Sequence record: OR699282.2
Direction: 5' to 3' (one strand)
DNA: 64,000 nt
Source of the DNA: Escherichia phage BAU.Micro_ELP-22
Position numbers and translations under genes: made by a program. The first letter of the stretch is position 1; every line of letters starts with the position of its first letter. Below are positions 11,534 to 47,198 of this stretch, piece by piece. Below the pieces are notes generated by a model, which was not told where the DNA came from, made no database searches, and was given only the letters and a program-made list of their open reading frames with translations.

Positions 11534-11538
11534 AACCA

Positions 11539-16677: not shown

Positions 16678-16704
16678 CGCTTTTAATAGAGTACAGGAGA
16701 AGAT

Positions 16705-31038: not shown

Positions 31039-31314
31039 ATGAATTATAAAGTTCTACAATATACATACAGTGTTTTGTTTGATTTACATCACAATGGAAG
31101 ATATCTCAATACAATACGAGAAAACACATTCACTCATACTATCTGGATTAATCACTTAATAATGATACGTGAATATTTTGTTAATAGTGAGATAATCATT
31201 CGTGGTAAAAAACAGAAGATAGAACAAGTTAATAGTTTTGGTGGTAAATTAGTACTATCATTTATAGATAGTAATACTAATGAAAGATATAGTATAGATT
31301 TGGTGGACATATGA
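31039..31314 (+). CDS. hypothetical protein, small paralog family 2
   Basis: 91-aa ORF; N-term LQYTYSVLFDL pattern shared with the next six genes. Confidence 0.6.
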   Translation: MNYKVLQYTYSVLFDLHHNGRYLNTIRENTFTHTIWINHLIMIREYFVNSEIIIRGKKQKIEQVNSFGGKLVLSFIDSNTNERYSIDLVDI

Positions 31315-31577
31315 ATTATAAAGATTTCCTACTAACATACAAGATTATTCGAGATTTAGCACACGACAATGATAGCCCTAGTCTAGAAGACACATGCACT
31401 GAAATGATTCATACAATTCGTGGTAAGATTAAAAAAAAATTCAGTACTGTTATTATTGGTGATGACCATGCAGAATTTTCTGATATAATCATTAGACGTG
31501 ATGGTAAAGTTGAGGTTCAGTACTACACTGATTTTGGATTTACCAGTATTCCGTTGGAGATATTCCCTTGGGATTAA
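31311..31577 (+). CDS. hypothetical protein, small paralog family 2
   Basis: 88-aa ORF; LLTYKIIRDL N-term. Confidence 0.6.
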   Translation: MNYKDFLLTYKIIRDLAHDNDSPSLEDTCTEMIHTIRGKIKKKFSTVIIGDDHAEFSDIIIRRDGKVEVQYYTDFGFTSIPLEIFPWD

Positions 31578-31879
31578 ATTTAAATGATATACAATTCACT
31601 TATAAGATCCTATATGATTTGTATGATGTATACCTTGTTAGTAACAAAATAGGTTCACATAACCCATACAAAGAACAACCATTTATTGATTTATATATTG
31701 AGTACTTAGATTCAGTAGGTGAATATATAAAAAAGAATTACAGTACTTTTATCGATGGAAATGATAAATTCGATTTCTATGGTGTGCAATCATATAATGG
31801 TATAATCCATGTTCAATTTCAGGAAATAACCGATAGGGGATTTATCGAGATTAAAGTTGTGAAGTTGGTGAATTTATAA
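31568..31879 (+). CDS. hypothetical protein, small paralog family 2
   Basis: TTG start per ORF track; IQFTYKILYDL N-term. Confidence 0.5.
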   Translation: MGLNLNDIQFTYKILYDLYDVYLVSNKIGSHNPYKEQPFIDLYIEYLDSVGEYIKKNYSTFIDGNDKFDFYGVQSYNGIIHVQFQEITDRGFIEIKVVKLVNL

Positions 31880-31889
31880 GAGGTTACAT

Positions 31890-32201
31890 ATGTTATTAAA
31901 TGATATACAATTCACATACAAATTTTTGTATATCCAATACGCTACGGTTGATGCTGGAGAATATCTCTACAGTGAAATCTATCGTTCGGTATGGATAAAG
32001 TTTTTGGATGAATTACATGATTATTACCATGATTTGTGTATAGTTCGTGATAATAAAATATACAAATTCCGCGATATTGTTAGTCATAGCGGTAAGCTAC
32101 GATTGGAATTAAGTACTGATAGTGATGTTGATTGGATTGGTGTAAATTTACTGGAATTGAAGAATGAAAAACAACTTAAAGGAAATACAAGTATTTTATA
32201 A
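31890..32201 (+). CDS. hypothetical protein, small paralog family 2
   Basis: 103-aa ORF; IQFTYKFLY N-term. Confidence 0.6.
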   Translation: MLLNDIQFTYKFLYIQYATVDAGEYLYSEIYRSVWIKFLDELHDYYHDLCIVRDNKIYKFRDIVSHSGKLRLELSTDSDVDWIGVNLLELKNEKQLKGNTSIL

Positions 32202-32448
32202 ATTCTTATACTTATCATATGTAAAAGATGAGTACTATGAAAGTGTGTATTATTTTTTATGGCAACATTACCGTACTATAGTAAGAGATTTATATATAGG
32301 AAAATCTATCATATCCAATGGTGAAAAATGTATCTGTACGGATGTAGTTAGTTTTAATGGTTCTTTAACATTGTGTTTCAGATGCGATAATAATAGTGGA
32401 TCATTTTCATTAAACGTATATCAGTTAGAAGGAATAAATTTTGAATAA
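32164..32448 (+). CDS. hypothetical protein, small paralog family 2
   Basis: 94-aa ORF; IQVFYKFLYL N-term. Confidence 0.55.
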   Translation: MKNNLKEIQVFYKFLYLSYVKDEYYESVYYFLWQHYRTIVRDLYIGKSIISNGEKCICTDVVSFNGSLTLCFRCDNNSGSFSLNVYQLEGINFE

Positions 32449-32641
32449 ATGTCCATATTGTAACAGTACTCAATTAGCTCGTTTCCGTTTAGATTCAGAC
32501 TGGGCGACTGGTGCTGGTGATTTCTTCCCTATTAATGATGATGCAGAATACACCGAAGAACAGCACAAAGATTTTGATAAATCATGGCGACCTGACATTG
32601 AGTGCATTTATTGCCTTAATTGTGAGCGTGTTCATGACTAA
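32441..32641 (+). CDS. small zinc-ribbon protein
   Basis: 66-aa ORF with two CxxC pairs (CPYCNS ... CIYCLNC). Confidence 0.5.
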   Translation: MNKCPYCNSTQLARFRLDSDWATGAGDFFPINDDAEYTEEQHKDFDKSWRPDIECIYCLNCERVHD

Positions 32642-32897
32642 AGCTGAACTAATAGTTCATACATATAAAATGATATCAAGTACTGAGTTATCATATAGTG
32701 CAGATAATCCAGTACTGGATTATTTTGTTGAATTATTGAAAGAGCATTATATTGGTAAATCACTGATTCTTAATAATATTAATTTCACGGTAAAGGATGT
32801 AGCACCTGGAAAAAACGTACTAATAGTATGTGTTACTTCATCTGATAACCCAGTATACCCAATATCAATAATTTTTGAGATATTAGGAGATTTATGA
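32634..32897 (+). CDS. hypothetical protein, small paralog family 2
   Basis: In-frame ATG 32634 (ATGACTAA overlap with upstream stop) preferred over track start 32511. Confidence 0.5.
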   Translation: MTKAELIVHTYKMISSTELSYSADNPVLDYFVELLKEHYIGKSLILNNINFTVKDVAPGKNVLIVCVTSSDNPVYPISIIFEILGDL

Positions 32898-33184
32898 ATA
32901 TCATTTTAATGCAGAAAACATATGCTATATTGGTGAAAGATTATTCCATTACTTTCGATTCACAAGAAAGTGCTCTACATAACCTATACAAAAACGTAAC
33001 ACAAGAATACAGAAATATGTTTTCTGACTTAGTAGTAGGAAGGTATTTCAGTACTAGAAAATACCCAAAACTTCAAATAGTTGATGTTTCTTTTTATTTC
33101 AATGGTCATATTACTATTCATAGTTTAGACCAAGATTCAACAACGTACTTAAACTTTTCATTTGATGAGGTAACATTTTTATGA
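32894..33184 (+). CDS. hypothetical protein, small paralog family 2
   Basis: 96-aa ORF. Confidence 0.55.
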   Translation: MNIILMQKTYAILVKDYSITFDSQESALHNLYKNVTQEYRNMFSDLVVGRYFSTRKYPKLQIVDVSFYFNGHITIHSLDQDSTTYLNFSFDEVTFL

Positions 33185-33357
33185 GAACAGTATTTTTTAT
33201 CTGGAGTCTTTTTTCATTGGCAGTACTGACAGTATGTGGGATTTGTTTCCTTTCATCAATTAATACTTGGTATATCAATTTACTATTTCCATTTGTCGGT
33301 GTTGGTTTAGGGTTTACTTTGCATAGTGTATGTAAGGATTACAATGAGAACAAATGA
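33181..33357 (+). CDS. small membrane protein
   Basis: 58-aa ORF (MRTVFFIWSLFSLAVLTVCGICFL...), two hydrophobic segments; below ORF-track cutoff. Confidence 0.35.
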   Translation: MRTVFFIWSLFSLAVLTVCGICFLSSINTWYINLLFPFVGVGLGFTLHSVCKDYNENK

Positions 33358-33622
33358 AGTACTTATTGCTGAAACAATGAAGATGATTTACAATATCACG
33401 TCAGCACAGAATATGCCCTATCCAACTAAGTCTTTATTGAGGACTGTGTATCTGGGGATAGTACAGGAATACTACAAATCCAAGCACCGAAGCATTATTA
33501 GTGTTTATCGTGATTATGAAAGGATTCGTATTTTATTCTGGAACAAGAATCGAGTACGTTCTGAATGTGACCTAGTGGACTTTAAATTAGAGAATCTTTA
33601 TTGCTATAAACAGGGACAATAG
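33326..33622 (+). CDS. hypothetical protein
   Basis: 98-aa ORF; start may be 33344. Confidence 0.45.
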   Translation: MYVRITMRTNEVLIAETMKMIYNITSAQNMPYPTKSLLRTVYLGIVQEYYKSKHRSIISVYRDYERIRILFWNKNRVRSECDLVDFKLENLYCYKQGQ

Positions 33623-33640
33623 TTTAATTCATGATATAAT
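33613..33640 (+). promoter_or_regulatory. sigma70-like promoter with extended -10
   Basis: GGGACA (33613-33618), 16-nt spacer, TGaTATAAT (-10 hexamer 33635-33640); upstream of the 33681 gene. Confidence 0.5.
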
Positions 33641-33680
33641 AATGGGTAAGGAACAATAATTAACACAAGGAGTGTGTGAA

Positions 33681-34409
33681 ATGCTTGACCGTATCCGTTT
33701 CGCTACAGAGATGGCGAATGAATTAAACATGGCAAATTTCCAAATGTTAACATCAGTAATGGCTGAACATGCATGTGCTTATTCTGTAAGTGGTGTGCAG
33801 TGTGGTCAGGAGAATATGTTAGCAGATGTTTATAGTGAAGTGCAAAGTAAGCAATATAGTGTAAAGACATATAAGGATAAGTTTGTTAGTCTTTATATGA
33901 ACGAAGATATTGCCGAAGACCGTAAATTCACTGATTTTATTATTGAACGCCGAGTATCAGGTGTATCTAATCCTAATGCATCAAGCGAGGAAGTTTTTGC
34001 AGAAGTACTGAAAGATATATACGAAAATGAATTAAAAAGTAAGAATCATTACAATGTACGTGAAACTAACACAGTGCTCTTGGGATATGATGAAGACGAA
34101 GAATACTATTATTTTCGTATGACTGAAGTTCCTTTTGAATACAAATCTCCATATACAACTACAGTGAAAGAATTTACTGAAAAAAGTAAAAACTTCATGA
34201 AGCATGAAGGAAATCGTTGTAGTATAAATGGTTATGACGAAAATGGCATTCACATTTATGAATGGGTTCACCCAAATTGTCAGACATACACTCGTTGCTT
34301 GAAAAAACGTTATAATTTAGAAGAGCATGAATCATTCTATTTTAAAGTTAAGAAGCAAGGTTACACTCGCCCCGCCGATTCTGAATTGATGGGTATGATA
34401 TATTTCTAA
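33681..34409 (+). CDS. hypothetical protein
   Basis: ATG 33681 with AAGGAG RBS (track used GTG 33672); 242 aa, no recognisable motif. Confidence 0.6.
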   Translation: MLDRIRFATEMANELNMANFQMLTSVMAEHACAYSVSGVQCGQENMLADVYSEVQSKQYSVKTYKDKFVSLYMNEDIAEDRKFTDFIIERRVSGVSNPNASSEEVFAEVLKDIYENELKSKNHYNVRETNTVLLGYDEDEEYYYFRMTEVPFEYKSPYTTTVKEFTEKSKNFMKHEGNRCSINGYDENGIHIYEWVHPNCQTYTRCLKKRYNLEEHESFYFKVKKQGYTRPADSELMGMIYF

Positions 34410-34419
34410 GGAAACTTCT

Positions 34420-34701
34420 ATGGATTTTTATCTACACACATGGACATACGAACAATATATTACATTATATCTTGAAATTATTAACACAGAACCTAGGTGT
34501 GGTTGTTGGTTCGCAGATATCATAAAAGAGTATGCTGACGAGTTCGAGTTTGTGTATCTTGGGTCTGATATATTTGTAAAAAGTGTAGGTAAAACCGGAC
34601 GAATCACTGATATAGATTACGACACTGTTAGTGTGAATTTCTATGTTGATTTTCCTGATGCTGGAGTTGATGGTGTATATTGTCTTTATGAAATAATTTA
34701 A
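34420..34701 (+). CDS. hypothetical protein
   Basis: 93-aa ORF. Confidence 0.5.
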   Translation: MDFYLHTWTYEQYITLYLEIINTEPRCGCWFADIIKEYADEFEFVYLGSDIFVKSVGKTGRITDIDYDTVSVNFYVDFPDAGVDGVYCLYEII

Positions 34702-34707
34702 ATTCTT

Positions 34708-34732
34708 AGGCCAGCGTTTGCTGGTCTTTTTT
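34708..34732 (+). terminator. rho-independent terminator
   Basis: GGCCAGC-gttt-GCTGGTC hairpin followed by TTTTTT. Confidence 0.7.
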
Positions 34733-34745
34733 CGCAGGTACAAAG

Positions 34746-35048
34746 ATGTTCAGTATAGATTTAATTAACAGTACTATCAAAATGTTGGCTGATTTGGTGA
34801 GACAATCCAATGGAACTTTATATCCATCAATGTATAAAATGTTTGACCGATACATCAAGGATTGTAACATATCATTATATGGACTTACTGTTGATATAGA
34901 CGATTACTATGGAATTAATACTTCATATAAAACAGGAATTTTAATTGGTATTAATATAAAGATGGGGTATTTCCCTTATTACTGTATAGGATTACCAGAT
35001 AATACTTTGGTAGAATATCCAGCCAGTACTATTAAATTAAGAGGATAA
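34746..35048 (+). CDS. hypothetical protein
   Basis: 100-aa ORF. Confidence 0.5.
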   Translation: MFSIDLINSTIKMLADLVRQSNGTLYPSMYKMFDRYIKDCNISLYGLTVDIDDYYGINTSYKTGILIGINIKMGYFPYYCIGLPDNTLVEYPASTIKLRG

Positions 35049-35055
35049 AACTAAA

Positions 35056-35634
35056 ATGAATGTATTAGAATTAAGTACTAAGCTGATTAGTATGCGTAAT
35101 GAGTGGTACGATTGGTTTTATAATGGTACTGATATGGATTTTTCAAAATATCCATTTATGGAATCAGGATGTGATGCAAGATACCGCTGGTTGAGCAAAG
35201 ATTGTTCTGGTTTACATATTCTAGTTGACGATAGTGGTCAGGGAATTATAAAAGATTTACTTCAAGTTGAACAACTCGTCCATGATAATTGGTGTGATAA
35301 CGATCCATACCTTGGAAATATGATTTATGTAAGTGAAGATGATTGCATATTCGTTATCCAGCGTCATGGTAATTCTATGTTTTATGTAGCAGATAGCAGT
35401 ACTCCAGAAGGTGCAGCAGCCGATGGACTTATGCCTAAGATTGATATATTGGAATTTGGATTACCTGAGCACTTCCAGATTAGTACTTTATACGATATTC
35501 CACCACTTGAGTTCTTTGAAGAATTTAAATTGTACTACAATGATCTTCAAAAATTGAGTACTGATCGACGCATTGAAATAACTGTTAAGTACATGGACGG
35601 AACGAAATTAACTGATACGGGGATAGAATTTTGA
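35056..35634 (+). CDS. hypothetical protein with FQ-like motif
   Basis: 192-aa ORF; motif LPEHFQISTLYDIPPLEFF. Confidence 0.55.
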   Translation: MNVLELSTKLISMRNEWYDWFYNGTDMDFSKYPFMESGCDARYRWLSKDCSGLHILVDDSGQGIIKDLLQVEQLVHDNWCDNDPYLGNMIYVSEDDCIFVIQRHGNSMFYVADSSTPEGAAADGLMPKIDILEFGLPEHFQISTLYDIPPLEFFEEFKLYYNDLQKLSTDRRIEITVKYMDGTKLTDTGIEF

Positions 35635-36320
35635 TTAAAGATTTAGATAGAATTTTATATGTACTAAGGGGTGTAATTACATTACATCCACAAATCAATC
35701 GAATTGAAAGTACATTTCAGTTGGAGTCAAGAGAAACTCCATATTCACATATATCAAATGTAGTTGGTTCACTCAGTACTGAAGACTCGTCTTACGATAT
35801 TTGTGTATGTGAAGTACAACCAAGTTCGGATCTTGGATTTGCTATTTTTGATAAAGATCAAAATCTCATTAGTATGTTTCAGTGCAATAATCCTTTTTGG
35901 AAAACATGCCTGTATCCAGAGTGGGCTATGCTTGATCCAACCAAGAGTACCATTAAAGTTTATGACTCTAAAAATGATGAAGTCGTTATTGATTTGGATG
36001 AGTCAATGTCAGAGGAAGAACACTTTCAGCTAATGATGATGCGTGCTATGCCGGAATACAATGCAATGATTAACACTGTGCAATACATTAAGGATACCAT
36101 GCCAGCGTTGCGTACACATGAGTTTTGTCATCCGGTATTGTATGAACATCTAGATTTAGACTTCAGTACTATTAAATTTAAAGATAGTGTTAAAAAATAT
36201 ATTCAAGAGAATGTTAAATTTGATTTTATTAGTACTATGAACAATAATCCAAAAACTAATTTTAGGCATCAGTACAATGAATCTTTGTCTAATGGACGTG
36301 ATACCAGTTGGTGGAAATAA
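35631..36320 (+). CDS. hypothetical protein with FQ-like motif
   Basis: 229-aa ORF; motif SEEEHFQLMMMRAMPEY. Confidence 0.55.
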   Translation: MIKDLDRILYVLRGVITLHPQINRIESTFQLESRETPYSHISNVVGSLSTEDSSYDICVCEVQPSSDLGFAIFDKDQNLISMFQCNNPFWKTCLYPEWAMLDPTKSTIKVYDSKNDEVVIDLDESMSEEEHFQLMMMRAMPEYNAMINTVQYIKDTMPALRTHEFCHPVLYEHLDLDFSTIKFKDSVKKYIQENVKFDFISTMNNNPKTNFRHQYNESLSNGRDTSWWK

Positions 36321-36321
36321 T

Positions 36322-36585
36322 ATGAATATTCAAGATAGATTACAATTACTGTACACACTTGAACAGGCTGCTTATGATCTTGTTCGAAAAATCTCAGATG
36401 AACTACCTAAAGGAACTAAAGTTCGTGTACGTGAGATGAATTATTTTTCTGGAGTAATTGAAGAACAAGTACTAACAGTGAATAAAGTAACATACTATGA
36501 ATCTGAGTTGTCTATTCAGTGTGAATCTGATGATGGATTAATATCATATTATGGAACTGATGTAGATATAGAGGTAATAAAATGA
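36322..36585 (+). CDS. hypothetical protein, small paralog family 3
   Basis: ATG 36322 preferred over track start 36277; core DELPKGTKVRVREMNYFSGVI. Confidence 0.5.
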   Translation: MNIQDRLQLLYTLEQAAYDLVRKISDELPKGTKVRVREMNYFSGVIEEQVLTVNKVTYYESELSIQCESDDGLISYYGTDVDIEVIK

Positions 36586-37724
36586 CCCTTTTGCAAATAT
36601 ATGAAGATTTAATGCACTTATGTAATACAAACGATGCATTCTTTTATGTGGATCATAAAAGTCCTGCTGGTGGCACGTATCGTGTATTCAGTTATCGTCT
36701 AGCATCATACACTGATTTCATGCAACCAAATGCGTTGGAAACCCGTGGCTCTATGTGGGAAATTGATGAAGAAGGTGAAATGATACGTTGTGCAGCACGT
36801 ACAATGAAAAAGTTCTTCAATGCTTACGAGAATCCTGCTACAATGTTCCCTGCTAACACCACATGCGATGACATTGCGGTAGTGATGCCTAAGTTGGATG
36901 GTTCGATTATCAGTACTTACCGTGATAATGATGGTGAGATTCGTTGTAAATCACATACTGCATTGTATTCTGACCATGCGATTAACAGTACTCGACTTAT
37001 TAACGAGAACCAGAATTTGTATCAGTACATCGACGAAGCGGAACGTTTAGGTTACACAGTTAATATGGAGTATACAAGCCCAGAGTACCGAATTGTATTA
37101 CCATATCAGGTAGAACAACTGTTTGTACTGAACGTTCGTCATCGTGTGAGTGGTGAGTTGCTATGTGGTAAAGCACTACGTGATAAGTTTCCATGTCTTG
37201 CACAGTACAGTACTAATATGACTGGAAAAGATATTCATCACACTTTTCCGGTACGAAATACCTTCCGTGAAAGCGTGGAGGAAGTTCATAAAATGCTTGA
37301 TATTGAGGGTTTTGTGTGCATCCTAAATAATGGGACAATGTGTAAAATAAAGACTGACTGGTACAGTTCATTACATCTTACAAAAGATAGTATTATTATT
37401 GATTCTCATTTATATGAAGCAGTATTAAATGGTTCAAGTGATGATTTAAAACAATTGTTCAGTACTGATGAATATGCTATGCAAAAGATATTAAGAATGG
37501 AACAATTGGTATTTTCGTGCTATAATGCATTACAAGATGAAGTAGAAAGCTTCGTCAAGGAACACAAGCACTTGGAGCGAAAGGAATTCGCAATGAAGGT
37601 TCAGGAGTGTTTAACTAATGAACTGAATCGTCAGGGCTTGGCCTTTGCAATGTATAACAATAAGAAAGTTGATTACAAAGAGACTCTTATAAAATACATG
37701 AAAATTGTACTAAAGGATTTTTAG
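36582..37724 (+). CDS. rnlA: RNA ligase 1
   Basis: 380-aa ORF aligning from memory with T4 RnlA: FFYVDHKSPAGGTYRVFSYRLASY...ALETRGSMWEIDEEGE...KKFFNAYENP and nucleotidyl-transfer lysine motif KLDGS. Confidence 0.85.
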   Translation: MTLLQIYEDLMHLCNTNDAFFYVDHKSPAGGTYRVFSYRLASYTDFMQPNALETRGSMWEIDEEGEMIRCAARTMKKFFNAYENPATMFPANTTCDDIAVVMPKLDGSIISTYRDNDGEIRCKSHTALYSDHAINSTRLINENQNLYQYIDEAERLGYTVNMEYTSPEYRIVLPYQVEQLFVLNVRHRVSGELLCGKALRDKFPCLAQYSTNMTGKDIHHTFPVRNTFRESVEEVHKMLDIEGFVCILNNGTMCKIKTDWYSSLHLTKDSIIIDSHLYEAVLNGSSDDLKQLFSTDEYAMQKILRMEQLVFSCYNALQDEVESFVKEHKHLERKEFAMKVQECLTNELNRQGLAFAMYNNKKVDYKETLIKYMKIVLKDF

Positions 37725-37754
37725 TACTATCTAGCCTAAGCACAAGGAGAAGTG

Positions 37755-38009
37755 ATGGCTAAACCTAAGTATAAAAATGACGGTTCCCTTTCTCCGACTG
37801 AGTTCAGGAAAATACAAGAAGAAATCGATGAATTACAGCACAAACGCTCAATGAAAGGTGTGAAGATAAGTAAGAAACGAATCGAGAATACCTTCGGATG
37901 TAGTAGTACTGAATACAAGAAGAAAAGGAAACCAAAAGGTGTTAAGCCGAGAATACATGATGTAACTCGCTATACATCGAAACGTGAAAATAAATTCGAC
38001 CCACTATAA
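37755..38009 (+). CDS. small basic hypothetical protein
   Basis: ATG 37755 with AAGGAG RBS; lysine/arginine-rich. Confidence 0.5.
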   Translation: MAKPKYKNDGSLSPTEFRKIQEEIDELQHKRSMKGVKISKKRIENTFGCSSTEYKKKRKPKGVKPRIHDVTRYTSKRENKFDPL

Positions 38010-38018
38010 GGAGTTCAT

Positions 38019-38255
38019 ATGAAAGTTGAAGTTCAGCATAGTATTGTTCAGGATATGTCAGTAGTTAAATTTCTTTCCTTGAAAGATTATTTCAGATGTA
38101 TCAAGTTCCTAGAAGAATCTCAATTACAGTGGACCCCATTAAAGTACAGTTCATCCAATGATACTGCTAGTATTCGTTGTGATGAATCTGTACTTGTGAA
38201 AATCTCCAAGCGATTTGGGATTGGGAAATACAATGATAAACAATGCACAAAGTAA
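38019..38255 (+). CDS. hypothetical protein
   Basis: 78-aa ORF. Confidence 0.45.
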   Translation: MKVEVQHSIVQDMSVVKFLSLKDYFRCIKFLEESQLQWTPLKYSSSNDTASIRCDESVLVKISKRFGIGKYNDKQCTK

Positions 38256-38544
38256 TTTACTATATATAAAGTCAGTAGAAGCTGAAATTAAAAATTCAGT
38301 ACAAACTATCGTCGATGAAATGATTGACAAATACAAGAGCAATCTTATTGGGAAGAAAGTCAGATGTTGGGATTACACATTCAAACACTGGTACGATTCC
38401 GAGATTGTGAAAGTTGATGTGAATACTGATAGTAATGGTCTAATTAATGGTATTGCGTATATTGGTGTTTTAATACGCAAGGGAACACCACAGGAATGGC
38501 TAACTTATCATAATATAGAGCATGTTAAATTTTTAGAGGATTAA
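38233..38544 (+). CDS. hypothetical protein, small paralog family 3
   Basis: ATG 38233 preferred; core KSNLIGKKVRCWDYTFKHWYDSEIVKVDV. Confidence 0.5.
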   Translation: MINNAQSNLLYIKSVEAEIKNSVQTIVDEMIDKYKSNLIGKKVRCWDYTFKHWYDSEIVKVDVNTDSNGLINGIAYIGVLIRKGTPQEWLTYHNIEHVKFLED

Positions 38545-38547
38545 AGG

Positions 38548-39480
38548 ATGCCAACTATCACACTAACAGTTGGATTGCCTGGGTGTGGTAAAACTACATG
38601 GGCAGTGCAAGAGATTAAAAACGCCAAATCCAAGACTATCAACATCAACCGTGATGATATTCGTGAATCTATGGCTGGGTCACATGATGCTTACAAATTC
38701 AACGATGCTAATGAGAAGTACGTAACTAATTTACAGTTCAGTGCAGCAAATTCAGCAGCAGAGAATGGTTGGAACATCATCATATCCGATACGAACCTTA
38801 AACAACATTTCCGTAATCTATGGAAAGTATGGGCTAAAGATAATGGCTATGATTACAAAGAAAAGAACTTCTATGATGATTTTGTACCTAATGAAGACCG
38901 TGGTGCAGATGTTCATGAATTCTTTAAGATTAAAGAGTTCGTAAAACTTTGCAAGAAATATAATCTCCAGCGTGAGCGTTCAGTACAAGATAATATCATT
39001 GACACTATGGCAGATACGTACTATTATAGTAAAGCATTGCACATTGGTTACTATGGTAATTCACGAGAAGCTGCTATTATCGTTGATATCGACGGTACTC
39101 TTGCTCATAAATGGGGTCGTAATCCTTACGATGAAAGTACTGTTCTTCAGGATACACCTGATGAAGAAGTTATTTTGTCTATTATCGCTGAAGCAGTTTT
39201 TCATAAACGCAAGATTATCGTCATGAGTGGGCGTACTGAAGGGTGTCGTGCTGATACCGAACAGTGGCTTAAGAATTGGGGTGTTCCTTACGATGCATTG
39301 TTTATGCGAGATATCGATGATAAACGTCCTGATGATGTTGTAAAATTCGACCTGTACATGAAAAATGTGGTTGATCATTACGATGTTAAAAAGGTATATG
39401 ATGACCGCGATCAAGTTGTATTCATGTGGCGTAAACTACTTGGGTTGAAAGTTTTCCAAGTGGCTGAAGGAAATTTCTAA
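38548..39480 (+). CDS. pseT: polynucleotide 5'-kinase/3'-phosphatase
   Basis: Walker A P-loop GLPGCGKTTW at N-terminus; HAD-type phosphatase motif VDIDGTLA; tail DDRDQVVFMWRKLLGLKVFQVAEGNF parallels T4 Pnk C-terminus. Confidence 0.85.
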   Translation: MPTITLTVGLPGCGKTTWAVQEIKNAKSKTININRDDIRESMAGSHDAYKFNDANEKYVTNLQFSAANSAAENGWNIIISDTNLKQHFRNLWKVWAKDNGYDYKEKNFYDDFVPNEDRGADVHEFFKIKEFVKLCKKYNLQRERSVQDNIIDTMADTYYYSKALHIGYYGNSREAAIIVDIDGTLAHKWGRNPYDESTVLQDTPDEEVILSIIAEAVFHKRKIIVMSGRTEGCRADTEQWLKNWGVPYDALFMRDIDDKRPDDVVKFDLYMKNVVDHYDVKKVYDDRDQVVFMWRKLLGLKVFQVAEGNF

Positions 39481-39484
39481 TACA

Positions 39485-39516
39485 AAAGGGATCATATATT
39501 GGTCCCTTTTTCTTTT
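39485..39516 (+). terminator. rho-independent terminator
   Basis: AAAGGGATC-atatatt-GGTCCCTTT hairpin followed by T-run. Confidence 0.65.
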
Positions 39517-39705
39517 AAGGTACATTATAGTGAATGTAACAACACAGATGTTATTACGAAAAGACTACTTAGAAAATATAGAACGATACTATAGATTGTC
39601 TTTGTATGAAAATAAGCATAAAAATTATAGTTTTGATAAACTACTAAATTCCAGTACTGATGATTATCTATTTTCATCAATGTTTTATGTGAGAGGTTTA
39701 TTATA

Positions 39706-39966
39706 ATGGATAAATTTCACACAGATATAACACAGATAGGTAATCTTATCAATAGTCTAATTACTGATTTAGAAGAAAAGTACTTAGGTCGAAATGTATA
39801 CGTAGAAATGTATGAAACATATGGTGTTATTGATATGATTTATTACAGTGCATTGAAGTGTGAAATACGTTTAACAATATGTTTGTTTGAAAAAAATACA
39901 TTCAACAGAAGTACTGCAATTCGCCAAGTTGGAGTTGATGATATAGAATTATACGAGGAACAATAA
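39706..39966 (+). CDS. hypothetical protein, small paralog family 3
   Basis: 86-aa ORF; core LITDLEEKYLGRNVYVEMYE. Confidence 0.55.
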   Translation: MDKFHTDITQIGNLINSLITDLEEKYLGRNVYVEMYETYGVIDMIYYSALKCEIRLTICLFEKNTFNRSTAIRQVGVDDIELYEEQ

Positions 39967-40217
39967 TGTTTGAGCAGGACTTAGAGATATTCAAAAGTCA
40001 TATTGATTACTTGACTATATTAGAAAATGATTTAACTACAAAGTACAAAGGCATTCGTGTTCTGTGCTGGTATGATGATTGGGATTATAAACGTGAACTC
40101 ACGATTGATCGAATTTATTTCAGTGACGGTGTACTAAATGTACATGGTGTAAATGATTTTGGTCATTCATATACATATTCTAATAATGCTAAATTTAAAA
40201 GGATCTACAATGAATGA
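39966..40217 (+). CDS. hypothetical protein, small paralog family 3
   Basis: 83-aa ORF; core LENDLTTKYKGIRVLCWYDDWDY. Confidence 0.55.
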   Translation: MFEQDLEIFKSHIDYLTILENDLTTKYKGIRVLCWYDDWDYKRELTIDRIYFSDGVLNVHGVNDFGHSYTYSNNAKFKRIYNE

Positions 40218-40512
40218 ATATTATCATAATTTATTCGATTACATAAAACTAATAGATGATCTTTCTTTTGAATTTCTCAGTACTGAAAAAGTTCTTGAAC
40301 CTCTCTATTATGATTGTATTAGTTCACTATGTTTAGATGAAAAAGAGATATTAGCAAACAACTTACCATCCACGGTCTGTACAATCAATGGTTCCAAGGC
40401 ATTAGTGTGCGAGGTTAATTTTCATAAATCACTTAATACAATTGTTTACAAGTTCGATAACACTTGGGTAAATCATGTAACCAGTAATATTAAATCTGTG
40501 AGATTTTTATGA
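40210..40512 (+). CDS. hypothetical protein
   Basis: ATG 40210 (MNEYYHNLF) preferred over track start 40153. Confidence 0.5.
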   Translation: MNEYYHNLFDYIKLIDDLSFEFLSTEKVLEPLYYDCISSLCLDEKEILANNLPSTVCTINGSKALVCEVNFHKSLNTIVYKFDNTWVNHVTSNIKSVRFL

Positions 40513-40805
40513 ATATAAAAAAATTATTTGAACAAGTAAATTTATTGTACTGGTGTTCAGACGGTTCAGATAAGGAATATAGTGAAGTTTATTTAGAACT
40601 GTTTAGAACTGAAATTCATCAAATTCGAAGATACCTAATTGATAACAAAACTAAAGTACAAGTAAGATACCATAACGGTACGTTAAAGAATGGTGTAATT
40701 ATTGGATTGATAGTTACACGAATGTCTAATAATATTAAAGTTGCAGTTAGATTAATGACTGATGATGGTGTCTACACAATAGAAGCTAGTGAGATTATAT
40801 ATTAA
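40509..40805 (+). CDS. hypothetical protein, small paralog family 3-like
   Basis: 98-aa ORF; core NKTKVQVRYHNGTLKNGVIIGL. Confidence 0.5.
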   Translation: MNIKKLFEQVNLLYWCSDGSDKEYSEVYLELFRTEIHQIRRYLIDNKTKVQVRYHNGTLKNGVIIGLIVTRMSNNIKVAVRLMTDDGVYTIEASEIIY

Positions 40806-41111
40806 ATGGATATACAAACATTCAATAAACTTAAGTACTATGATGATGGTTTTGCATTAATAATTAACGAACTTGATGGAATACCATACGAATATCATAA
40901 TCAAGTAATGAAGATAATAAAATGTATATGTGAAGAATTAAAAAGTATATTTAAAAATGAATATGTTTATGATTTAGGTAATAGTAGCAAAAAACTATAC
41001 ATAAAGAAATTCTGGGGAACGCATTGCGGTTTGATGGTCGATTTAGGTTTAAGTTTAGACGATAATTCTGAATCATGTTCATTATATATAGATGAAATGC
41101 GAATATCATGA
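40806..41111 (+). CDS. hypothetical protein
   Basis: 101-aa ORF. Confidence 0.5.
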   Translation: MDIQTFNKLKYYDDGFALIINELDGIPYEYHNQVMKIIKCICEELKSIFKNEYVYDLGNSSKKLYIKKFWGTHCGLMVDLGLSLDDNSESCSLYIDEMRIS

Positions 41112-41151
41112 GACGTATCAGAATTCGGTGATATAATTTGATTACATCACC
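41109..41151 (+). promoter_or_regulatory. extended -10 promoter flanked by inverted repeat
   Basis: TGaTATAAT (-10 hexamer 41132-41137) between GGTGAT (41127-41132) and ATCACC (41146-41151); GGGAGA RBS follows. Confidence 0.5.
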
Positions 41152-41168
41152 AATAGGGAGAAGTTGAA

Positions 41169-41495
41169 GTGAATGGTTCGTTTTTAACAATATTAGAAAA
41201 GACAACCGAGATGCTTTCTAGCTCGTTAATGCAGATTTTCAGTACTAATAATTTATACAATACCCAGGTGTTAGATTCAATTAATAATAACTATGTGGTA
41301 AGTATATCTGATGAAATATGTCCATTTAACGCGTATTCAATTTATAGTGTAGAAGAGTTTCATATATCCGAGATTCGATGTGGTTTTGGTGCTTGGTTAG
41401 TTCTAAATGAACGTTCAGGGTTGTCTTTATACATCGAAGAAGTTAGTAAATTTATATACAAAGGAGTAGAATATGTTAACCCCAATTATTCTTAG
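41169..41495 (+). CDS. hypothetical protein
   Basis: GTG start with GGGAGA RBS 8 nt upstream; 108 aa. Confidence 0.5.
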   Translation: MNGSFLTILEKTTEMLSSSLMQIFSTNNLYNTQVLDSINNNYVVSISDEICPFNAYSIYSVEEFHISEIRCGFGAWLVLNERSGLSLYIEEVSKFIYKGVEYVNPNYS

Positions 41496-42102
41496 CAGTG
41501 CATATGTAATCGGTATTATTATTTCTGGTATGCTTGCATATAACTATAACAGAAGTGTTCTAGGTTATGTAGTACTTGGTACAGTACTAAGTCCAGTGAT
41601 TGCCATTGGTCTTCTTGTTATGCTAGGTGAGAAAAATACAAGCTTCTTTATTACTAAAGAACTTGATAAAATCACTCCAGCACCAGAAACAGTTATTCCA
41701 GAAGTTAAAGAAGAAGTTAAAGAAGTTGAAGTTCAAATGCAAGTTAAAGTGTATAATACACTTGAAGAAACTGATCCTAAAGTTGTAGTGAATGTAGTTC
41801 CAGTAGTTGAAGATGTGAAACCAAAAGCTCCTAAAGTACAGAAAAATACTAAAACTGCAAAGAAAGCTCGTTACACTAAAGGTAAGAACAAAGGTAAATC
41901 TAAGGATGAACCACAACTAGGTGTTCATGACCATACTGCACAAATTGCAACGGCAGCGACCGCAGCAGCAATCGTAACATCACCAATCTACAACAATGAT
42001 GATTACAGTGATTATAGCCGTCACAGCAGTTCTTCCTCTGATTCTTGTTCCTATGATAGCTCTAGTTCTGATTCAAGTTCATCGTCTGGAAGTTGTGATT
42101 AA
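41473..42102 (+). CDS. membrane protein with Ser/Asp-rich C-terminal tail
   Basis: N-terminal hydrophobic helices, central KEEVKEVEVQ region, C-terminus SSSSSDSCSYDSSSSDSSSSSGSCD. Confidence 0.55.
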   Translation: MLTPIILSSAYVIGIIISGMLAYNYNRSVLGYVVLGTVLSPVIAIGLLVMLGEKNTSFFITKELDKITPAPETVIPEVKEEVKEVEVQMQVKVYNTLEETDPKVVVNVVPVVEDVKPKAPKVQKNTKTAKKARYTKGKNKGKSKDEPQLGVHDHTAQIATAATAAAIVTSPIYNNDDYSDYSRHSSSSSDSCSYDSSSSDSSSSSGSCD

Positions 42103-42431
42103 TGTCAATGAAACCACTAATTCAACATAATATTTTTTATAGGTCATTATTCAAAATTCAAGATGATTTTTATCAGACGTTGAGTAATGATCTTATAGGT
42201 AAAACTGTACGATATTCGGAACAATACATCAAACGTATGACAAGTGAGTATATTGACCCTGAATACGAATACGACATTGAACACATTAATCCCAATACTA
42301 GAATGAAAATCATTGAGATATTTAAGAATGGGAGAACTATAGGTGCTGAAATTGAGTACTTGAATTGTGATTGTTACATAGATACCGAGTTAAGTTTGGA
42401 TTATCTTGTTTTAGTGGATGATGAGGAATAA
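42102..42431 (+). CDS. hypothetical protein, small paralog family 3
   Basis: 109-aa ORF; core LSNDLIGKTVRYSEQY. Confidence 0.55.
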   Translation: MSMKPLIQHNIFYRSLFKIQDDFYQTLSNDLIGKTVRYSEQYIKRMTSEYIDPEYEYDIEHINPNTRMKIIEIFKNGRTIGAEIEYLNCDCYIDTELSLDYLVLVDDEE

Positions 42432-42433
42432 TT

Positions 42434-42649
42434 ATGATAACATTTTTTGCAATATATGGTTTTGTAGCATTTGTTACATTTATAACCAACTTTCTAGTAC
42501 TTAATTGGGGTTGTTTTAAAGATGAAATCATGATTATCATGAATCTCCAAACAGCAGCACTGATGGCTATTATTTGGCCTGTAACATTAGTATATATTTT
42601 TATTTCACTTACCCAAGATATTATTAACAAATATAAGAGAAAGAAATAA
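42434..42649 (+). CDS. small membrane protein
   Basis: 71-aa ORF, two hydrophobic segments. Confidence 0.5.
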   Translation: MITFFAIYGFVAFVTFITNFLVLNWGCFKDEIMIIMNLQTAALMAIIWPVTLVYIFISLTQDIINKYKRKK

Positions 42650-42900
42650 TGTTCAACACTGACTTATCACATTTGCGATATCTTATGTCTTTGGCTGATG
42701 ATTTTATAAATGATCTGAAGCCAAAATATATTGGTCAAGAAGTACGATTAATAAACTCCAGAGGGTATGGAAAGTATATTATTACTGATATGTATATTAG
42801 TGGTGGTGAATGGCGTTTTAAAATTAATACTTATCTTAAAGATGGTTCTTTTGCTGGAACACAAGTTACTAAACACACTAATATTATATGGTTGGAGTAA
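42649..42900 (+). CDS. hypothetical protein, small paralog family 3
   Basis: 83-aa ORF; core INDLKPKYIGQEVRLINSRGYGKYIITDMY. Confidence 0.55.
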   Translation: MFNTDLSHLRYLMSLADDFINDLKPKYIGQEVRLINSRGYGKYIITDMYISGGEWRFKINTYLKDGSFAGTQVTKHTNIIWLE

Positions 42901-42902
42901 TA

Positions 42903-43646
42903 ATGAAACACTTCTTAGAAGTAACTGTACCTGATGATAAAGATTTATACATTGTAGGTGATTTGCATGGTAATGGTAAACTATGGGATGCTACAGTGAA
43001 AGAATTTGGTATTACACACAATGATTATGTTTTCAGTGTAGGTGATATTATCGACCGTGGAGAACAAAATTCAAAGCTCCTTTTTGAATTTTTGTTCGGA
43101 GAAAATCGTTACATGATTGCGGGTAATCATGAGATGATGTGCGTTGATTCGGAAACACTTCGAGATTGGTATCATTGTTGGATAAGTAATGGTGGTGATA
43201 AATTCCTTGATGAAGTTGGAGGAACAGGCATTCAATTCTTTCGTCAGTACTTAAAGGATCTCCCTATGATTATCCAAATCAATCACCGAGGATTGAAGAT
43301 TGGGTTAGTTCATGCTGGAGTTCCGTTGGAATATACAACATGGGAACGATTTGTTAATGGGACAAAATCACTTAGTGCTGATATAATTGATAAGTGCTTG
43401 TGGGATAGAAAAACATTCGATTATTGTAGAACTAATAATACATATTATGCACCTAAGTTAGATGGAGTGCATTGTGTCTTTAGTGGACATACAGCAGTTA
43501 CAGACCCACTCATTTACGGTAATCGCATTTGGATTGATAGTCAGTTCTTGACGGGTGACTTAACTCTCGCTACTCCACAAAGTGGTGGGATGAGATATTT
43601 ACGTAAAGAAAAAGATGAGTACTCATTCAATCGTTTCAAAAGGTAA
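42903..43646 (+). CDS. Ser/Thr protein phosphatase (PPP-family metallophosphoesterase)
   Basis: Motifs GDLHGN, GDIIDRGE, GNHEMM in canonical order; ATG 42903 with GGAG RBS preferred over track start 42888. Confidence 0.75.
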   Translation: MKHFLEVTVPDDKDLYIVGDLHGNGKLWDATVKEFGITHNDYVFSVGDIIDRGEQNSKLLFEFLFGENRYMIAGNHEMMCVDSETLRDWYHCWISNGGDKFLDEVGGTGIQFFRQYLKDLPMIIQINHRGLKIGLVHAGVPLEYTTWERFVNGTKSLSADIIDKCLWDRKTFDYCRTNNTYYAPKLDGVHCVFSGHTAVTDPLIYGNRIWIDSQFLTGDLTLATPQSGGMRYLRKEKDEYSFNRFKR

Positions 43647-43651
43647 TAATT

Positions 43652-43921
43652 ATGCATGATGTAGTTAAAAAATATTTGAATGATAGATATATTATGAAAA
43701 AATCTATTAATTCTATCCTAAAAGACCATGCAAATCAAATACGTGAGATTCTATCAAATAAACTTATTGGTTGTTCAGTTGAGTTCAACTACAAAAAGAA
43801 TGTCGTGAAGGTTGGAGTTATTAAACGTGTAGTTGCTGTTTATGACCAAGATGTATATGTTGAAATAGAATATGATGATAAATTATCACAATTAAGTACT
43901 GAAGATTTAACATTTTTATAA
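43652..43921 (+). CDS. hypothetical protein, small paralog family 3
   Basis: 89-aa ORF; core LSNKLIGCSVEFNYKKNVVKVGVI. Confidence 0.55.
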   Translation: MHDVVKKYLNDRYIMKKSINSILKDHANQIREILSNKLIGCSVEFNYKKNVVKVGVIKRVVAVYDQDVYVEIEYDDKLSQLSTEDLTFL

Positions 43922-43931
43922 GGAAATAGAA

Positions 43932-44159
43932 ATGAAAGTAATTCAAGTTATGGTAGAAAAATACCAAACTGAAGATGGTCGTATTTTTGATTCAGCTAAA
44001 CAAGCTGAACACCATGAACGTATTATTTCTGGTGCACGTAAAGTATGTCCTACATGTAATGGAACACAACAAGTACCGTCAGAAGATTACCGCAGCTTTT
44101 ATGCTTGTCCACACTGTGATGGTAAAGGGTTTTTAGAAAAACAAGAGGTATGGAAATGA
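43932..44159 (+). CDS. small zinc-ribbon protein
   Basis: 75 aa; CPTCNG ... CPHCDG (two CxxC pairs, DnaJ-like zinc finger spacing). Confidence 0.5.
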   Translation: MKVIQVMVEKYQTEDGRIFDSAKQAEHHERIISGARKVCPTCNGTQQVPSEDYRSFYACPHCDGKGFLEKQEVWK

Positions 44160-44569
44160 AATTGTATTGCTTAACTAATATGTACTGTCAAGGTGTCCAA
44201 GCTGGCATTCAAGCATTCCATGCTGGTGTTAAACTAATTAAAGAGTATGAAGGTTCTGCTTTCAGTACTATTATTGATGAATGGTACTATGAACACGAAA
44301 CTATTGTAGTACTAAATGCTGGTGGACATGATAAGTTAAATTCTTATTATAACAACCTTAGCAAACAGGGAAAAGTTCCGTTTGCCAAATTCAATGAAGC
44401 TGGATTGAATGATGCTATTACCTGTGTAGCAGTACTGTGTACGTCTGAAATGATTGAAGACATGGCTGTTATGCGTATGAATCTTCCTGCTGGTGATCAA
44501 CTAATGCAAGTAAAATATGGTGCATTGTTTGACACATTAAAAGCAATCAGCACAATGAGGACAATTTGA
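44150..44569 (+). CDS. hypothetical protein
   Basis: 139-aa ORF. Confidence 0.5.
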   Translation: MEMKLYCLTNMYCQGVQAGIQAFHAGVKLIKEYEGSAFSTIIDEWYYEHETIVVLNAGGHDKLNSYYNNLSKQGKVPFAKFNEAGLNDAITCVAVLCTSEMIEDMAVMRMNLPAGDQLMQVKYGALFDTLKAISTMRTI

Positions 44570-45768
44570 TGGATTTTCCAGAGAAGTTATTTGTTGCACG
44601 TTCCTATGTAAACCACAACCAAGTTGATGGTTTTATTATCGATGCAACAAAATCACATACAAAAGCGTTTGAAACAAAGAAAGAGAGAGCAGAGTACTGG
44701 GCAAAGAAGAACAATCTTCCATCGTTATATATTGACAACGTTCCAACTACGGGATTTTGTGTAGTTGATAAATTAACAACTCATGCACGAGAAACATATT
44801 TCACGATCCGTCACCCAGAAGGATTTGAATTTATGATTAGTGCAAAAAACATGAATGATTTAATTATCAATAACGATATAATCAAAGGTGTTTTTGTAGA
44901 CCCAATGTTTTTCAACAATAACTTAGAATTAATTAATGGTAAAACAAAAACGTTTGCTAAGTTAGTTGAAAAAGAAAATAAAAAAGAACAACAAAAAGAA
45001 ACTGTAGCAGGTCTTAAAGTTGGTGATGGTTTCACTTATCTTAAAGAAGATTACTATTACTGCGGTAAAGTACATGCAATTTGTATAAAGAAAACTAAAG
45101 AATTTGCATATCCAGACAAAAGTTCAGTTTATCATTTACTTTTTAACAGTACTCGTGGAACTTATGCATTGAATCAACGTTTGGATAATTACAATCTTGA
45201 ACCTCGTGCACTCTTGAATAAGAAGACTACAGCAGATGAAGAAATTAAACTTGCTAATGAATTTTGGCAAAGCTATAGAACAAACAGACATAACCCATTA
45301 GGTGAATCTAACATTCCAGTACTGGTACACAATAAATCATTTAAAGCAAAAGACCTTAAAATTAAATACGAAGAAATAAATGTTGATGATCTTATGAATA
45401 ATGGACGTTTCAACGAGAACGTACCATTTATGACTAAAGATAATGAACAAACATATCGCGTATTTTTTGGTGTAAGTAATAATACAACGCGTAGTTATTA
45501 TGGGCGTAGTGGAGATTATAATATCCATTATAATGATAAATTTGAACGCTTTAGTGCATATCCAGTTCAAATTGATGATAATGGGATTATGGTAATGGAT
45601 GTTGATATTAATGAACACTCATCATTTAGTACATGGAATGGCTATCGTTCCCCATTCTTCCCACCAAATGAACGCAAAACATCAAGCACTCGTTACTACC
45701 AAGACAAACCATGTCACGTTCAACTATCAATTAGTAATCCACTTTATATTGGAAAGTATTATCTATAA
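44566..45768 (+). CDS. hypothetical protein
   Basis: 400-aa ORF, lysine-rich central segment; no recognisable motif. Confidence 0.6.
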   Translation: MMDFPEKLFVARSYVNHNQVDGFIIDATKSHTKAFETKKERAEYWAKKNNLPSLYIDNVPTTGFCVVDKLTTHARETYFTIRHPEGFEFMISAKNMNDLIINNDIIKGVFVDPMFFNNNLELINGKTKTFAKLVEKENKKEQQKETVAGLKVGDGFTYLKEDYYYCGKVHAICIKKTKEFAYPDKSSVYHLLFNSTRGTYALNQRLDNYNLEPRALLNKKTTADEEIKLANEFWQSYRTNRHNPLGESNIPVLVHNKSFKAKDLKIKYEEINVDDLMNNGRFNENVPFMTKDNEQTYRVFFGVSNNTTRSYYGRSGDYNIHYNDKFERFSAYPVQIDDNGIMVMDVDINEHSSFSTWNGYRSPFFPPNERKTSSTRYYQDKPCHVQLSISNPLYIGKYYL

Positions 45769-45779
45769 AGGAATATACA

Positions 45780-47198
45780 ATGAGCATTTTAGCAATTCTT
45801 GAAAGCATTAAAAATACTAGCAGTACTCTGGGCAAAAAGGCTATTCTTGAACAAAATAAAGATAATGTAACTTTACAAAAAGTACTGAAATATACACTAG
45901 ACCCTTCTATCGTAAGTGGCTATAAGAAGCTCCCTGACGCTGATGACGTATATCAACATATGACGTTAGATGAAGCAATTGATAAGCTAGAATGCATTTA
46001 CAAGCGTGATGTGACAGGAAATGCGGGGCGTGATTTCATTGCTTCAGTACTGGGTTCTGTATCAGAAGATGACCAAGAAGTTCTTCGTAAAATGCTCACG
46101 AAGAACCTTGATTGTGGTATTCAAGAAAAGAACTGCAATGATGTATTTGGTAAAGGATTCATCAAAGACGAACCATATATGCGTTGTTCTTTGATTGACA
46201 AAAAGACTGCAAAGAACATCAACTTCAAAGATTATGGTTACGCTATATCAGAAGTGAAAATGGATGGTCAGTACTTGAACCACGTTGTCATTAATGGTTC
46301 ATTAACTTCTACATCCCGTAATGGTAAACTATACGACTTCCTGGGTTGTCGTGATGGTGAGATGGCAGGTCTTGCTCACATCATCCAAAGTAAAGATGAA
46401 CGTTTTAGTAGTGGTGTGGTCTTTATGGGGGAAGGTGTAGTACTGGACAATGATGGAGAAACCATTCTCCCACGCACTACTGGCAACGGTATAATTCAGA
46501 AAGCTGGTAAAGATAGCATCAGTCAGAATGAAGCAATGCGTACTGTATTCGTTCTATGGGATGTTGTTCCATATGATGCATTTTGTGAAGGTGTATGGGA
46601 TGTAAAACGTAAAGAACGTCGCGAGATCTTAGTAGATGCAATTAACGAACTCAATAGTGATTTTGTTCGTATGGTTGGATTCCGTAAAGTTCTAAACATC
46701 AAAGAAGCATTTGAGTACAATAGTGAACTAATGAACGAAGGTGAAGAGGGTTCAGTACTGAAATGCGAAGATGGTATCTGGAAATCTCACACTTCTCCTA
46801 AGCAGTTGAAAATGAAACTTAAGATGCAATTGGATTTGCGTATTGTTGGTTTCAATGAAGGTGAAGGGAAGCGTAAAGGTAGCCTTGGTTCTTTACAACT
46901 GGAAAGTGCATGTGGCACATTGAAAGTTAATGTAGGTACAGGCATCCGTGAAAAAGATGCCGAATGGACGTTTAAAACCATTTGGGAAAGAATGCAAGAA
47001 CTTATTGGTAAAGTGGTTACAGTTGAGTGTAATGACATTGTATTCGAGAAGCGTACTGGTGAGCCATCACTGTTCTTACCAGTGTTTATTGAATTTAGAT
47101 TTGACAAAAACACTTGTGACGACTATACTCGTATTTTAGAAATTCGTGATAGTGCTGTTGAGGTGTTCTCAAACAGTATCATTGAATCACTTGGCTAA
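45780..47198 (+). CDS. ATP-dependent DNA ligase (T4 gp30-like)
   Basis: N-term ILAILESIKNTSSTLGKKAILEQNKDN parallels T4 ligase ILKILNEIASIGSTKQKQAILEKNKDN; adenylation lysine motif EVKMDGQ; LKMKLKMQLDLRIVGF near C-terminus. Confidence 0.85.
   Translation: MSILAILESIKNTSSTLGKKAILEQNKDNVTLQKVLKYTLDPSIVSGYKKLPDADDVYQHMTLDEAIDKLECIYKRDVTGNAGRDFIASVLGSVSEDDQEVLRKMLTKNLDCGIQEKNCNDVFGKGFIKDEPYMRCSLIDKKTAKNINFKDYGYAISEVKMDGQYLNHVVINGSLTSTSRNGKLYDFLGCRDGEMAGLAHIIQSKDERFSSGVVFMGEGVVLDNDGETILPRTTGNGIIQKAGKDSISQNEAMRTVFVLWDVVPYDAFCEGVWDVKRKERREILVDAINELNSDFVRMVGFRKVLNIKEAFEYNSELMNEGEEGSVLKCEDGIWKSHTSPKQLKMKLKMQLDLRIVGFNEGEGKRKGSLGSLQLESACGTLKVNVGTGIREKDAEWTFKTIWERMQELIGKVVTVECNDIVFEKRTGEPSLFLPVFIEFRFDKNTCDDYTRILEIRDSAVEVFSNSIIESLG

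Follow-up and report, generated by a model that had tools for sequence, protein, structure and literature searches.

The window analysed here is a stretch of 64,000 nucleotides from Escherichia phage BAU.Micro_ELP-22 (sequence record OR699282.2), in which a set of small open reading frames (ORFs) lies among genes for RNA repair and a phosphatase. The 8 kb region containing them shares 99.6% identity with Escherichia phage JP4 and 99.3% with PBECO4, both of which are Asteriusvirus jumbo myoviruses with genomes of about 350 kb, and the window likewise comes from an Asteriusvirus jumbo coliphage. Among the window ORFs of more than 100 amino acids (aa), 99 are on the + strand and 6 on the other. 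The small ORFs probably belong to one lineage-specific paralogous family of helix-plus-barrel proteins, which would have arisen by old local duplication and diversified as binding modules that are not part of the virion.

The eight small ORFs listed in the initial annotation are all present, on the + strand, and encode 83–109 aa. The first two, at 36322–36585 (87 aa) and 38233–38544 (103 aa), are directly upstream of rnlA (36582–37724), for a T4 Rnl1-type RNA ligase, and of pseT (38548–39480), for a polynucleotide kinase-phosphatase, respectively. Their starts are internal ATGs that match the gene lengths annotated in relatives. Beyond pseT are the ORFs at 39706–39966 (86 aa), 39966–40217 (83 aa), which adjoins it, 40509–40805 (98 aa), and 42102–42431 (109 aa). 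The ORF at 42649–42900 (83 aa) slightly overlaps the gene for a calcineurin-like (NinI-type) phosphatase (42888–43646), and that at 43652–43921 (89 aa) is directly downstream of it. The three enzyme genes are also on the + strand, and their identity is confirmed by Pfam (RNA_lig_T4_1 and T4_Rnl1_C for rnlA; HAD_PNKP, 8.6e-44, and AAA_33 for pseT; Metallophos, 6.2e-11, for the phosphatase). The described scattering of the small ORFs between them is correct. Most of the small ORFs abut or overlap their neighbours in an operon-like arrangement. Each is referred to below by its first position.

Whether these ORFs are related is not evident from pairwise comparison. Within the window, BLASTP makes only one link, between 39706 and 42649 (E 0.01), and phmmer gives E ~7e-4 for this pair (6.5e-4 with 39706 against 42649) and 0.02–0.3 for the others, though the candidates often top each other's lists. 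Plain BLASTP and phmmer, which link just these two ORFs, were therefore rejected as too insensitive to detect the family. The syntenic region was compared with those of nine relatives, RaK2, GAP32, CBB, fHe-Yen9-04, Turkey5, 121Q, A4, pEa_SNUABM_12, and XbC2, and orthogroup alignments were made from these regions. When 25 small-ORF orthogroups were compared with hhalign, pairs of candidates made up 28 of the 300 possible pairs, yet 8 of the top 11, the best being 42102 with 42649 (84%) and 39966 with 42649 (61%), a result in support of a family.

In a leave-one-out test, a hidden Markov model (HMM) trained on the other seven orthogroups was scored against the omitted candidate and about 2,800 shuffled or reversed decoys. 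Seven of the eight candidates score above every decoy, among them 38233 (17.8 bits, with the best decoy at 11.6), 42102 (15.9 against 9.4), 36322 (13.7 against 10.6) and, marginally, 39706 (12.1 against 10.9) and 39966 (11.8 against 11.0); 42649 is the most central member. The exception is 40509, which is without the conserved glycine and reaches 5.9 bits, below the decoy maximum of 10.0. The core motif originally proposed, [DE]L..KY[IL]G..V, is present in its literal form only in 39706 (KYLGRNV) and 42649. A relaxed form, [KND][YL][ILK]G..V, defined only after the sequences had been inspected, occurs seven times in the 131 window ORFs, with six occurrences in candidates (residues 25–43; KYKGIRV in 39966), at the same relative position in each, and the seventh in PseT. 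In shuffled sequences 0.36 occurrences are expected, with a maximum of 3 in 1000. The only invariant residues in the family alignment are a glycine and a valine at the start of the first strand, and identity between paralogs is 14–28%. Taken together, the enrichment in hhalign, the leave-one-out HMM scores, iterative and unsupervised HMM clustering without decoy matches, and the motif statistics show that seven of the eight ORFs are homologous. The claim of shared ancestry is thus upheld for these seven, while 40509 is joined to them only through RaK2 ORFs (L001 10046–10312 and 11845–12147; E 3.8e-5, 1.6e-6, and 1.3e-4) and is a probable member.

The unsupervised HMM clustering, which the initial annotation had proposed, was done on 241 small ORFs at E < 1e-4, with zero decoy hits in every round. 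It converged on a single cluster of 78 members that contains all eight candidates and nine other ORFs of the window, together with ORFs from 121Q, A4, Turkey5, and RaK2; the five GAP32/CBB/Yen9-04-type phages contribute no member. With the core HMM, for which the decoy maximum is 10.2 bits, every peripheral group has one or more members that exceed all decoys. The ORF at 40806–41111 (+ strand, 101 aa), which had not been listed, is a probable member by its cluster link (E 3.1e-6, no decoy hits); one member of its group beats all decoys with the core HMM, although group-level hhalign gives only 35%. Also a probable member is 34420–34701 (+ strand, 93 aa), with a cluster link of E 1.4e-7 and an A4 ortholog at 20.8 bits. 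Two possible members, 32511–32897 and 32894–33184 (+ strand), have cluster links of E 5.3e-5 and 1.4e-5; the latter reaches 14.0 bits, and for the former the A4 ortholog reaches 11.7 bits. The remaining five (31039, 31311, 31568, 31890, and 32164) are tandem small ORFs on the + strand at 31039–32448 that form a family at BLAST level. These are probably distantly related to the core, although the link is tentative: a Turkey5 ORF (L005 2446–2730) acts as a bridge, at 17.5–24.3 bits with candidate-only HMMs and above all decoys, and direct group-level hhalign gives only 4.7%. The family would probably therefore comprise about 17 ORFs of the window, between 31.0 and 43.9 kb. It had been described as a third family of small proteins; the family exists, and is wider than described, but may not be separate from the 31039–32448 group. 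Many further RaK2 ORFs are of the same design, judged by eye.

An eight-sequence profile searched against 5.8 billion proteins returned only close orthologs, at 63–99% identity and without Pfam domains, and when 1.84 billion cluster representatives were scanned in full with HMMER, just 11 reached E ≤ 0.001; neither search recruited a distant relative with a known function. There is nothing significant for the eight ORFs in Pfam, NCBIfam, or PADLOC, and the best match in a sequence search of the PDB (E 0.046) is not significant. From these searches, the family is confined to Asteriusvirus and RaK2-type phages. In PHROGs, each of the eight ORFs is placed in a different family without assigned function, 39706 and 39966 sharing a weak second match (phrog_11429, E 0.02). 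Seven of these PHROGs families can now be merged with certainty, and about 17 ORFs probably, into one family with a predicted fold, which simplifies annotation. No description of the family was found in literature searches. In RaK2-like jumbo phages more than 80% of the genes have no assigned function, and among these a compact, fast-evolving block beside RNA-repair genes stands out. Expansions of small binding domains by paralogy are, however, familiar in large phages, and the family, although new and narrow in distribution, is otherwise of an ordinary kind for phage accessory genes, a useful annotation rather than a surprise.

Against their orthologs in 121Q, A4, and Turkey5, the small ORFs have ratios of nonsynonymous to synonymous substitution (dN/dS) of 0.1–0.7 (0.18–0.36 for 36322), compared with 0.0–0.16 for the neighbouring enzymes, and a dN that is 3–5 times that of these enzymes at the same divergence. 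This pattern indicates genuine coding genes that are evolving fast, under purifying constraint that is either relaxed or accompanied by diversification. Five of the eight proteins are acidic and the rest near neutral (isoelectric point, pI, 4.4–8.0), a charge which would favour binding to proteins over general binding to nucleic acids. The idea that they are components of the virion was rejected, as the matching products of phage phAPEC6, gp359c–gp379c, are neither named in the main text of the paper nor present in the portion of its 62-protein virion mass spectrometry table that was covered (Table 1, PMC7247149).

Two AlphaFold models indicate what these proteins may look like. That of 43652, from an alignment of orthologs only, has a predicted local distance difference test (pLDDT) score of 91.8 and shows a helix at residues 2–38 and five strands, the last of them preceded by a short helical turn; that of 42649, from a mixed alignment of paralogs and orthologs, has a pLDDT of 74.4, with a helix at residues 6–27 and strands after it. 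Both have the β-rich sequence after the motif and the small β-barrel that the initial annotation had suggested. Each member is thus predicted to consist of a long N-terminal α-helix and a five-stranded small β-barrel of the SH3/Tudor type. The modelled SH3-like barrel can be superposed on Tudor domains, and the order of elements, a helix at the N-terminus and then a strongly bent sheet of five strands, is also that of the Sm type, but the higher-confidence model is nearer to Tudor, PWWP, and KOW domains than to Sm. Foldseek against BFVD gave only weak matches (E ≥ 0.012).

The likeness to known barrels is one of fold. Tudor/Royal family and other SH3-like barrels (Tudor, PWWP, chromo, KOW, SH3) are alike in fold, but the phage members have no Pfam match to them, the aromatic cage of the Royal family is not conserved, with no aromatic position kept across the paralogs, and the KOW glycine motif is lacking, placing the family outside PF00467. 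Unlike Tudor-type barrels, every member includes an N-terminal helix, predicted to be 22–37 residues long. The differences from Sm, LSm, and Hfq proteins are the absence of the Sm1 and Sm2 motifs, the absence of any Pfam LSM or Hfq match at E ≤ 1 for the eight ORFs, a much longer helix, and the mostly acidic or neutral charge. Other close modules are the bacterial and phage Tudor-like protein binders, such as the CarD/Mfd-RID domain, the C-terminal domain of UvrD/PcrA, and the KOW domain of NusG. The N-terminal domain of T4 MotB is also a Tudor-like protein-binding module. As expansions within jumbo phages, there are parallels in the zinc-ribbon proteins of Bacillus phage G, with about 35 copies (PMC7824862), and in the 22 paralogous ORFs reported for phage CBB (PMC5259590). 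These likewise comprise many diverged copies of a small domain, within one lineage, clustered among non-structural genes and without an assigned function. The domain is a different one in these cases, and the helix-plus-barrel family is not described in either paper; CBB and GAP32 have no detectable members by small-ORF clustering and comparison of the locus.

The RaK2 members mostly have their best match in the window member of the same slot, that is, between the same conserved genes. This is the case for RaK2 ORF463 and 36322 (E 1.7e-7), for L001 10611–10904 and 39966, 11845–12147 and 40509, and 12162–12422 and 42649, while L001 2734–3066 and 3532–3801 match the 31039 group. The exception is L001 8222–8488, which best matches 43652, in another slot. 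Overall, the duplications are older than the split between Asteriusvirus and Alcyoneusvirus, and the conserved backbone and slots likewise speak for an old origin that is mostly vertical. In phage ECO103 4-12-1, a near-identical relative of 352 kb that was reassembled and scanned for the family genome-wide, about 20 of the 22 hits are within one 13 kb block. The collinearity with RaK2, the low identity between copies, the clustering in one block, and the absence of flanking repeats support old local duplication followed by divergence.

Individual slots nevertheless gain, lose, and replace genes between close relatives. In phage A4, more copies are present between pseT and the gene for the membrane protein, and an additional member of 84–90 aa is found upstream of pseT in 121Q, A4, and Turkey5 but is missing from the window. 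The allele at 38233 is highly divergent, being only 31–38% identical to the gene in the same slot of 121Q, A4, and Turkey5 (dN 0.53–0.71), whereas the genes adjacent to it have a dN of 0.001–0.19 (0.001–0.16 for rnlA and pseT) and PseT is about 95% identical to that of 121Q. By these comparisons, the slot at 38233–38544 and the gap before it (38019–38255) is a replacement hotspot. A further replacement is seen outside the block: in ECO103 4-12-1, a clear family member of 102 aa (31.8 bits, motif EKYAGRKV) stands in place of the 157 aa ORF at 8607–9080 of the window, the exchange, whose boundaries match the ends of the ORF, running near-exactly from start to stop. It is one of the few hits outside the 13 kb block and the sole strong one. 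The window ORF that it replaces was itself considered as a member because of recurrent weak phmmer matches, but it does not match the family HMM and was rejected.

The explanation that best accounts for these observations is that an ancestral gene was duplicated locally, long ago, in the variable slots of the conserved backbone of RaK2-like jumbo phages, and that its copies then diverged rapidly, with relatives gaining, losing, and replacing entire genes there. What is conserved, namely the hydrophobic pattern and the Gly-x-x-Val with which strand 1 begins, would be structural, leaving the remaining sequence free to vary. The barrel, capped or presented by the helix, may attach to a protein or nucleic acid of the host or the phage in the course of takeover or counter-defence, with separate copies having separate targets. 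Small barrels of the SH3/Tudor type commonly serve as docking modules, and this, with conserved positions that appear structural while the rest diverges, the non-virion nature of the proteins, and their mostly not basic charge, points to a set of diversified binding modules that would act, during infection, on macromolecules of the host or the phage as the most likely role by analogy; the binding function, the diversity of targets, and the timing of expression are what we infer.

Several points weigh against this explanation. Group-level hhalign of the merged subfamilies gives only 5–42%, and one control pair reached 37%, for which reason the wider family is treated here as probable and not as established. 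The membership of 40509 and of the wider set (31–35 kb and 40806) is, on sequence comparison, only moderately supported. The alignment behind the 42649 model contained paralogs, including 43652, so that the two predicted models are not fully independent, and the proposed binding role stands on fold class and analogy.

A more specific version, possible though unlikely, is that the block encodes helix-capped Tudor-like binders, each of which would have a host factor of its own to neutralise or redirect, such as RNA polymerase, a translation factor, or a component of an RNA-targeting defence. Participation in one and the same conflict would explain why such binders are kept beside the Rnl1, Pnkp, and PTH2 counter-defence genes, and the rapid divergence, allele replacement, and flux in copy number would be signs of an arms race. 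If this were the case, the family would be a new one of phage anti-defence or takeover proteins.

The proteins could instead be Sm/Hfq-like RNA chaperones, binding RNA as rings or dimers and serving tRNA repair or translation rescue together with RnlA, PseT, and the PTH2-like hydrolase, as their position and the helix before a bent sheet might suggest. Such a role in conjunction with RNA repair has less in its favour than that of diversified binding modules and is unlikely: besides the lack of any LSM or Hfq match and the position of the better model closer to Tudor, PWWP, and KOW, the Sm1/Sm2-type residues are not conserved, with only the glycine and valine invariant. The acidic or neutral charge of most members is a weak argument against an RNA-binding ring. 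In addition, probable members are also found at 31–35 kb, at a distance from the RNA-repair genes, and GAP32-type and CBB-type phages retain the same enzymes without detectable members.

The initial annotation had proposed repeated insertion of a mobile gene cassette, a small self-contained unit with its own boundaries or regulatory signals placed again and again between the enzyme genes. The gain, loss, and replacement of whole small ORFs among close relatives, as in the extra copies of A4, the extra ORF upstream of pseT in 121Q-type phages, and the exact replacement of 8607–9080 in ECO103 4-12-1, is what such a cassette would produce, yet this flux also fits ordinary mosaic recombination in phages. 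There are no direct or inverted repeats flanking the copies, with only short, scattered matches of chance length in 33000–45000, and the shared promoter or terminator cassettes that had been suggested for the flanks were not found around them. Promoter-like sites are not enriched (66, against 72.3 ± 8.2 expected), and of the terminator-like sites (8, against 3.7 expected) the two with the longest and most G+C-rich stems, at 34708 and 39484, bracket no copy. Most of the genes abut or overlap, the paralogs are less than 30% identical, the order is largely collinear with that in RaK2, a phage of a different genus, and the members lie mostly together in a single block. Nor was any mobility machinery found, there being no recombinase or homing endonuclease associated with this region of the window. 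Repeated insertion of a cassette is therefore quite improbable and was not borne out. That the ORFs have no common ancestry, being unrelated or de novo and alike only through AT-rich composition and convergence on a helix followed by strands, is very improbable and largely refuted for the core seven: the mostly non-significant pairwise E-values, the separate PHROGs families, and the modest group-level hhalign with its control pair would fit it, but composition-matched shuffled or reversed sequences never reach the scores of seven of the eight omitted candidates, the motif is at the same relative position, the two models have the same fold, and, with the core HMM, the five GAP32/CBB/Yen9-04-type loci, whose ORFs are similar in size and composition, have just two small ORFs above the decoys, marginally (11.8–12.4 against 10.2 bits), where RaK2 by contrast has many that score.

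The genes between which the family is found form a conserved backbone. In the ten phages compared, the order is a 228 aa gene, a 245 aa gene, rnlA (kept in 10/10), two small conserved ORFs, pseT, a membrane protein, the phosphatase, a PTH2-like gene, a 400 aa gene, and a DNA ligase, and the slots between these genes are occupied by variable small ORFs. The enzyme backbone at 36582–47198 is thus in the same order in ten jumbo phages of several genera, and reads like an RNA-repair and translation-rescue module. It includes a PTH2-like peptidyl-tRNA hydrolase at 44150–44569, assigned by Pfam. Before this, at 43932–44159, is a 75 aa DnaJ/anti-TRAP-like CxxCxGxG zinc-finger protein (a small DnaJ-type zinc finger in Pfam), which is found in the E. 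coli phages only.

The two small ORFs between rnlA and pseT, 37752–38009 and 38019–38255, one of them basic and of 85 aa and the other of 78 aa, are conserved in 10/10 phages, unlike the variable family members nearby, and have no match above the curated thresholds in Pfam. The 209 aa ORF at 41473–42102 has a hydrophobic N-terminal segment that probably spans the membrane, and its C-terminus is serine-rich and of low complexity (…SSSSSDSCSYDSSSSDSSSSSGSCD). Pfam gives no match for it; a relative is present in 9/10 of the phage regions and absent from RaK2. Elsewhere in the window, at 786–18417, a separate and much larger paralog family of 25 ORFs of about 100–200 aa, related at BLAST level, fills the first 18 kb, and has no significant link to the small-barrel family.

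No hexamer is commoner in the window than the palindrome AGTACT, a ScaI site that is often extended to CAGTACTG. It is present 197 times, where 16.8 are expected under an order-1 Markov model, an 11.7-fold excess, and the next palindrome is at just 1.75-fold. The sites are divided 81/63/43 between the reading frames, with only 10 intergenic, and their presence in all three frames indicates a signal at the level of the DNA. No paper describing this excess was found in literature searches, and it may be worth more attention than the small-barrel family. There are no sites in 1–4000, the first being near 5000. The density is similar, at 58–77 per 19 kb, in RaK2, GAP32, CBB, fHe-Yen9-04, pEa_SNUABM_12, XbC2, Turkey5, 121Q, and A4, and across the whole genome of ECO103 4-12-1 the count is 919, where 101 would be expected, interrupted by two deserts, one of 5 and one of 8.3 kb.

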